NCBI RefSeq assembly: GCF_003334385.1
Contig: NZ_QOWN01000006.1
Length of the DNA stretch: 64,000 bases
Origin: Escherichia coli
GTDB lineage: Bacteria; Pseudomonadota; Gammaproteobacteria; Enterobacterales; Enterobacteriaceae
Strand: one strand, 5' to 3'
The translations under genes were made by a program, and so were the position numbers. The notes under the pieces were generated by a model, which ran no database searches, was not told the origin of the DNA, and was given only the letters and a program-made list of their open reading frames with translations. Positions 61,606 through 61,670 of this stretch are shown here, piece by piece (positions within the stretch are counted from its first letter, which is position 1; each line of letters starts with the position of its first letter).

Positions 61606-61643
61606 ACCCGAAACAGGTTGAAATAAACCCGTTTCGGGTAGCA
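61606..61643. promoter_or_regulatory. 38-bp inverted-repeat element upstream of fyuA (YbtA-binding-site type)
   Basis: acccgaaacagg-ttgaaataa-acccgtttcgggtagca; near-identical to the irp2 copy. Confidence 0.55.
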
Positions 61644-61651
61644 CTACTATT

Positions 61652-61670
61652 AGAAATAGTTATCATTTTC
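61652..61670. promoter_or_regulatory. Fur-box-like sequence upstream of fyuA
   Basis: agaaatagttatcattttc resembles the Fur consensus; lies between the repeat and the fyuA start. Confidence 0.4.

Follow-up and report, generated by a model that had tools for sequence, protein, structure and literature searches.

The element analyzed here lies in a 64-kb window (the whole stretch of DNA that was examined) from an Escherichia coli genome that carries the high-pathogenicity island (HPI) of Yersinia, and HPI-positive E. coli matched the window at 100%. Gene names were transferred from a collinear RefSeq E. coli record, 99.8% identical, in which ybtS-ybtX-ybtQ-ybtP on the minus strand are followed by ybtA, irp2, irp1, ybtU, ybtT, ybtE and fyuA (Table 1). 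The element is located within the 130 nt that separate the ybtE stop (61595) from the fyuA ATG (61726), and ybtA is encoded ~20 kb upstream of it in the same island. When a 401-nt query around the element was used, matches of at least 99% identity were found in 2267 of 5426 complete E. coli genomes, flanked by annotated ybtE and fyuA. Toward the other side of the window, a tRNA-Asn followed by an integrase gene at 33572-34724, frameshifted according to the annotation of the near-identical record, corresponds to the usual left junction of the HPI in E. coli. The start of ybtP (39312-41114) is ambiguous, as the longest open reading frame begins at 41114 (600 aa) and the RefSeq annotation of the near-identical record begins at 41024 (570 aa).

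Table 1 Operators, Fur boxes and genes of the ybtP-ybtA-irp2 and ybtE-fyuA regions, in positions of the 64-kb window
Feature	Position	Strand	Basis or remark
Third, diverged operator copy GACCAATGCGGGTATAAATAGAACCGAATGGGGTAG, facing ybtP, between Fur box and ybtA start	41220-41255	-	Looser scan and PWM (43.8 bits, top score of the window)
Fur box common to the divergent ybtP and ybtA promoters	41191-41209	+	15/19 to consensus; same box in pESI (PMC11225919)
ybtA, AraC-type regulator	41281-42240	+	100% identity to proteins named YbtA; Pfam PF12833, PF00165 (AraC HTH)
Paralogous 36-bp YbtA operator, irp2 promoter	42323-42358	+	Sequence match; PWM 41.7 bits
irp2 Fur box	42368-42386	-	15/19 to consensus
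ybtE, final gene of the irp2 operon	60018-61595	+	Stop 10 nt upstream of operator; RefSeq annotation of near-identical record
36-bp YbtA operator (RS1+RS2), fyuA promoter	61606-61641	+	Distal unit 61606-61617, spacer 61618-61626, proximal unit 61627-61641 ending GGGTAG
Variable linker, operator to Fur box	61642-61651	+	8/9 columns variable across genera; T/C at 61645 and 61648 in E. coli
fyuA Fur box (putative) AGAAATAGTTATCATTTTC	61652-61670	+	13/19 to consensus, read on minus strand
fyuA, TonB-dependent yersiniabactin/pesticin receptor, regulated gene	61726-63747	+	RefSeq annotation of near-identical record

The fyuA copy of the 38-bp element (61606-61643) reads ACCCGAAAC AGGTTGAAATAA ACCCGTTTCGGGTAGCA, and its only close copy is found at the irp2 promoter (42323-42360) as ACCCGAAAC GGGCATAAATAA ACCCGTTTCGGGTAGCA; the strings quoted in the original prediction are present letter for letter in both. 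A repeat finder recovered the pair as a 42-nt direct repeat with 88% identity, and the 17-mer ACCCGTTTCGGGTAGCA has two exact occurrences in 64 kb against 0.01 expected from shuffles. The two copies differ at four positions, one of which (G10 to A) belongs to the distal unit and is fixed throughout the fyuA orthologues. The idea that the element is duplicated within the island held as far as the irp2 promoter is concerned, but the copy number in the island is three rather than two, the copy facing ybtP (41255-41220, minus strand) having been missed. All three copies are oriented toward an activated gene, and each is followed ~10 nt further on by a Fur-like box.

To place these copies in a wider family, ybt-type loci were collected by a genome search with an Irp1 segment, which yielded Salmonella diarizonae, Klebsiella michiganensis and K. 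oxytoca (six loci, three of them useful for promoters), and via YbtA homologues in a metagenome bin (91% identical), Serratia symbiotica (79%), Pluralibacter gergoviae (57%), Xenorhabdus bovienii (56%), Pectobacterium (55%), Erwinia rhapontici (51%), Burkholderia oklahomensis (49%) and Xanthomonas hydrangeae (46%); three plasmid records were added to the locus set. Twenty-eight sites beside YbtA homologues (46-100% identity) from 12 genomes aligned without a single gap, out to Burkholderia and Xanthomonas. They share a fixed 36-bp module in which the distal unit spans 12 nt, the spacer 9 nt and the proximal unit, whose last letters are GGGTAG, 15 nt; a 9-10-nt linker and the Fur box come next. 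The family consensus is AACCGATnCGGGTAG-AAATAA-ACCCGATTCGGGTAG, followed by ~10 nt and a Fur box. Information content amounted to 0.17 bits per column in the upstream flank, 0.99 in the distal unit, 0.89 in the spacer overall, 1.08 in the proximal unit and 0.39 in the linker, a contrast that is inflated by the choice of the sites by eye. Within the spacer of these family sites, positions 16-20 (AAATA) carried 0.7-1.4 bits per column, four of the five exceeding 1.1, and positions 13-15 about 0.5.

Because the sites had been picked by eye, two unbiased checks were made. A 21-mer scan of all loci fetched by then gave matches confined to ybt-type promoter regions. A matrix (the distant-site PWM) was built solely from the 13 sites beside YbtA homologues of 46-57% identity, and over the 64 kb it returned exactly the three ybt promoter sites at 41-44 bits (fyuA, 41.2), the next unrelated match scoring 6.1. 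The reverse-strand echoes of the three sites reached 22-23 bits, and the best score in 20 random 64-kb sequences was 19.4. The forward orientation outscores its reverse-strand echo, and the operator always points to the regulated gene. The 36-bp consensus produced zero false positives in ~450 kb of test sequence. An element that is palindromic, GC-rich, short and intergenic could also be a dispersed mobile or REP-like repeat that came to lie in two intergenic regions by chance, but with just three copies in 64 kb, each of them at a ybt promoter, directed toward the regulated gene and at a fixed distance to a Fur box, we attach a negligible probability to this reading. As a class, REP/MITE-like dispersed repeats were excluded by copy number: the 36-mer is present only in HPI-positive genomes (2267 of 5426 E. 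coli), at a median of two places per genome, and has no occurrence in HPI-negative ones.

Several of the loci collected in this way differ from the HPI in gene content. In Pectobacterium (6107-14955) and Erwinia rhapontici (6316-14424), a YbtA homologue is grouped with YbtPQ-like ABC transporters, an MFS protein and a TonB-dependent receptor; the same operators are present, most of them followed by a Fur box, and no NRPS/PKS genes were found within 10 kb. Such clusters may serve only the uptake ("piracy") of a siderophore resembling yersiniabactin. The Serratia symbiotica locus (11136-15379) contains a truncated irp2 homologue (928 aa) followed by an IS transposase and is missing irp1, with three operators and their Fur boxes still intact, and for these reasons it looks like a decaying locus in a symbiont. 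In Xenorhabdus bovienii (9936-11011), a lone YbtA homologue beside cobalamin genes has an operator on each side and no adjacent transporter or synthetase genes.

The original prediction had proposed that the half-sites are conserved as a binding site while the spacer between them varies freely. Alignments of orthologous promoters (fyuA, 8 genomes; irp2, 8 genomes; ybtP, 5 genomes) were used to compare variable columns. The element as a whole was far less variable than its immediate flanks (16/108 against 38/57 columns, p = 4e-11), and in the fyuA operator only 2/36 columns varied across the 8 genomes. When the half-sites were set against the spacer in these alignments, 9/81 columns of the repeat units and 7/27 of the whole spacer were variable (p = 0.11), and the G10 to A difference is itself located within the distal unit. 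The looser part of the spacer is confined to positions 13-15, where 4/9 columns varied (p = 0.02 against the units, in a small sample), compared with 3/18 at positions 16-21. The AAATA(A/G)A part of the spacer is as conserved as the repeat units, with drift only at positions 13-15. A free spacer between conserved half-sites is therefore upheld only in part, at positions 13-15, and is contradicted by the conserved AAATAA. The broader claim, that the half-sites form a protein-binding site under selection, is borne out by the difference in variability between element and flanks together with the literature on repeated sequences (RS) that names YbtA as the protein; the original prediction had rightly called for a binding site but had not named the protein.

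A similar picture emerged from the E. coli population. The counts of exact matches that follow are upper bounds for every 36-nt block, as the bands of at least 99% identity also take in alignments that were clipped where a mismatch falls at an end. For fyuA, the element (61606-61641) was exact in 2266/2268 E. coli records, the linker and Fur box (61642-61677) in 651/2268, the window's version being in the minority, and the leader block (61678-61713) in 1893/2268. At the irp2 promoter, exact matches were obtained for the upstream flank (42287-42322) in 1365/2266 records, for the element (42323-42358) in 2241/2268, with one mismatch in 25 records, and for the linker and Fur box (42359-42394) in 1948/2266. 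The operator is the most conserved 36-nt block at both promoters in this population of ~2268 records. Among three examples that were aligned, polymorphisms outside the operator were found at 61645 and 61648 (T/C) and in a T5/T6 run at 61689-61693 in the fyuA leader. One rare variant of the element was inspected, and it changes a repeat-unit base (C25 to A). Since the element is near-invariant in E. coli while the adjoining blocks vary, it is under strong constraint.

Each unit of the operator is near-palindromic by itself (CCCG-N3-CGGG), and because of this internal symmetry direct and inverted arrangements of the units are indistinguishable from the letters. In the irp2 and fyuA copies of the HPI, a central AAA in one unit opposite TTT in the other turns the two units into a near-perfect inverted repeat (11.4-11.6 of 13). 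The inverted symmetry of the ybtP copy is lower (7.8 of 13), and the distant sites are without preference (direct 7.8, inverted 7.3). When its TAG tail is included, the family consensus takes the form of a tandem repeat whose period is 21 bp, which the units fit equally well. The neat inverted symmetry is special to the irp2 and fyuA copies of the island.

This symmetry raises the question of whether the repeat serves chiefly as a stem-loop in the RNA, where the irp2-ybtE transcript has its 3' end (a terminator, partial terminator or stabilizer), and not as a protein operator. As plus-strand RNA the element folds, 11 nt past the stop codon of ybtE, into a 12-13-bp hairpin (-21.6 kcal/mol, z = -5.5); for the irp2 copy the value is -23 kcal/mol, and both near-perfect inverted copies follow a co-directional gene, the ybtP copy in its divergent region showing 7.8 of 13. 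However, the stem is followed by the tail GCACUACUAUUAG instead of a U tract, a terminator scan gave no match at the element on the plus strand, and ybtA has a strong terminator-like hairpin of its own, which immediately precedes the irp2 copy (42271-42305, -29.3 kcal/mol, then UUCUUU). In the 24 distinct sites of the family, 71.9% of positions paired compared with 68.3% in column shuffles, and double-sided changes affected 3 pairs compared with 3.7; with pairing so close to the shuffles and no excess of double-sided changes, the hairpin pairing is explained by the composition of the units. Conservation of the AAATA spacer and of the GGGTAG tail, which is unpaired, equals that of the stem; a hairpin leaves this unexplained, and it argues for protein contacts. 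We consider a mainly RNA-level function very improbable. Among defined classes, an intrinsic terminator was rejected, as a hairpin is present but the transcribed strand lacks the U tract, and so was a structured RNA element, compensatory changes across relatives (3 pairs against 3.7) not rising above shuffles.

A dual use of the operator can be envisaged on more speculative grounds. The inverted form found in the HPI might double as an RNA 3'-end stem-loop, which might end or stabilize the transcripts of ybtA and of irp2-ybtE upstream of it; a single stretch of 36 bp would then be both a DNA activator site and an RNA structure. Separately, the cassette of operator, 10-nt linker and Fur box, which is kept in Burkholderia, in Xanthomonas and in the uptake-only clusters, could be used to predict YbtA-family regulons. 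Both proposals are offered as unlikely.

Fur boxes were searched with the 19-bp 9-1-9 consensus GATAATGATAATCATTATC. Allowing up to three mismatches, no match was found in the 64-kb window, and the threshold was then relaxed. At the fyuA promoter, the 13/19 match is weak alone, as the window holds 26 scan entries at that level with both strands counted, and it is weaker than the matches at irp2 and ybtP/ybtA (15/19). The box begins 11 nt past the element, the same offset as for the irp2 and ybtP/ybtA boxes, and it is invariant from E. coli to Klebsiella oxytoca, with a better box in Serratia symbiotica. A Fur-like 19-mer (six mismatches or fewer) accompanies 24/28 family sites, mostly 10-11 nt past GGGTAG, compared with 1.9% of random windows. 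The putative fyuA Fur box is accordingly assigned from position and conservation and not from its score, and on that footing the predicted Fur-like box adjoining the repeat was located despite its modest match. Like Fur boxes in general, it is an AT-rich near-palindrome that covers the core-promoter region where a gene is repressed by iron. A Fur box is said to be present in all four HPI leaders (PMC8725597). In the Salmonella plasmid pESI, binding by Fur was demonstrated at ybtA and at irp2 though not for fyuA, and fyuA was derepressed by fur deletion (PMC11225919).

The position of the element at these promoters coincides with published regulatory sites. YbtA sites termed repeated sequences (RS) have been described at the irp2 and fyuA promoters and in the irp6(ybtP)/ybtA intergenic region (PMC5634559, PMC8725597, PMC11225919), and "pseudorepeat" YbtA sites together with Fur boxes are reported in every HPI leader (PMC8725597). 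The AraC-like YbtA is proposed to bind the RS as a homodimer with yersiniabactin, activating irp2, fyuA and irp6 and repressing its own gene (PMC5634559); binding and activation are credited by the citing papers to Fetherston 1996 and Anisimov 2005 (via PMC5634559 and PMC8725597). Compared with the HPI RS operators, the element has the same island, the same promoters (fyuA/psn, irp2 and ybtP(irp6)/ybtA), the same AraC-type YbtA and the same adjoining Fur box; there is no substantive difference, and it is the same element in an E. coli host. The finding is the YbtA operator (RS1+RS2) and Fur box of the fyuA promoter, which is already known.

In the ybtP/ybtA intergenic region, an inverted repeat, ACGGACGCCAAAAACGACAATTCAGGGTGGCGTTC, is located at 41139-41173, between the Fur box and ybtP; it hardly varies from E. 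coli to Serratia symbiotica and is by its position a candidate for the published RS3. The reporter constructs of PMC5634559 imply the order RS3, Fur box, RS1, RS2, ybtA, which agrees with the arrangement at 41139-41255. A PWM of the 15-nt unit did not pick out the published RS3 in the ybtA region, and the repeat at 41139-41173 gave no match to it. The operator over the ybtA side of this intergenic region fits the reported autorepression of ybtA.

RS-dependent activity of the ybtA promoter has been measured in E. coli DH5alpha, a strain without YbtA or yersiniabactin, and the authors proposed that an unknown factor acts on the YbtA sites (PMC5634559). On account of this activity another factor may also use the RS sites, and one could go further and suppose that the sites are bound mainly by another, chromosomally encoded regulator (e.g., another AraC-like protein), with YbtA acting indirectly. 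Against this, the motif travels with YbtA homologues through Enterobacterales, Burkholderia and Xanthomonas, on chromosomes as well as plasmids, which fits a regulator encoded in cis; the motif is missing from HPI-negative E. coli genomes, and the literature attributes the binding to YbtA. We therefore regard an indirect role of YbtA as extremely improbable, and the element is almost certainly the YbtA operator of the fyuA promoter (RS1+RS2) joined to a Fur box. What was observed directly is its sequence, the number and orientation of its copies, their rigid spacing, the purifying selection on them and their occurrence alongside YbtA homologues. The binding of YbtA and Fur and their regulatory effects are taken from the literature, the YbtA footprints by way of citing papers.

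The geometry of the operator invites comparison with other AraC-type activators. At araBAD, the AraC sites I1-I2 comprise two ~17-bp units with a 21-bp period on one helix face, located upstream of the core promoter and occupied by a ligand-activated dimer. The YbtA units share the 21-bp spacing of two helical turns, and the geometry of YbtA may be similar; the sequence, however, is different, and the YbtA units are each internally palindromic. A PchR-box was reportedly described by Michel et al. in 2005 for the pyochelin genes of Pseudomonas aeruginosa. By its description, that box resembles the present element in being the operator of a siderophore-responsive AraC-type activator related to YbtA, at the promoters of a thiazoline-siderophore receptor and of biosynthesis genes that are under Fur control.

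In the favored explanation, YbtA would contact two 15-nt units with the consensus A-C/A-CCGAWnCGGGTAG. The unit starts are 21 bp apart, corresponding to two helical turns, so that both units would lie on one face of the DNA, where a YbtA dimer could span them. Placed just upstream of the core promoter, YbtA would then activate fyuA, presumably through contact with RNA polymerase; a promoter scan found no sigma-70-like -35/-10 pair downstream of the element on the plus strand. Under iron sufficiency, Fur would occupy the box 10-11 nt past the proximal unit and turn the fyuA promoter off. With activation by YbtA and repression by Fur combined, expression of fyuA would require both scarcity of iron and the siderophore signal, and the same operator/Fur module would drive irp2 and ybtP.

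As this switch has been known since the 1990s, its rediscovery adds nothing conceptually. The practical yield is small and consists of a clean 36-bp register and consensus, and of an operator that is near-invariant in 2268 E. coli records next to a polymorphic linker. Descriptive additions are that the 36-bp register is ungapped, that AAATA(A/G)A is conserved in the spacer, that the linker to the Fur box has a fixed length of 9-10 nt, and that conservation reaches far outside Enterobacteriaceae. Overall, the element is the switch that ties the expression of yersiniabactin genes to iron starvation (through Fur) and to the siderophore signal (through YbtA). In extraintestinal E. coli, Klebsiella and Yersinia, fitness and virulence depend to a major extent on fyuA and the yersiniabactin genes.
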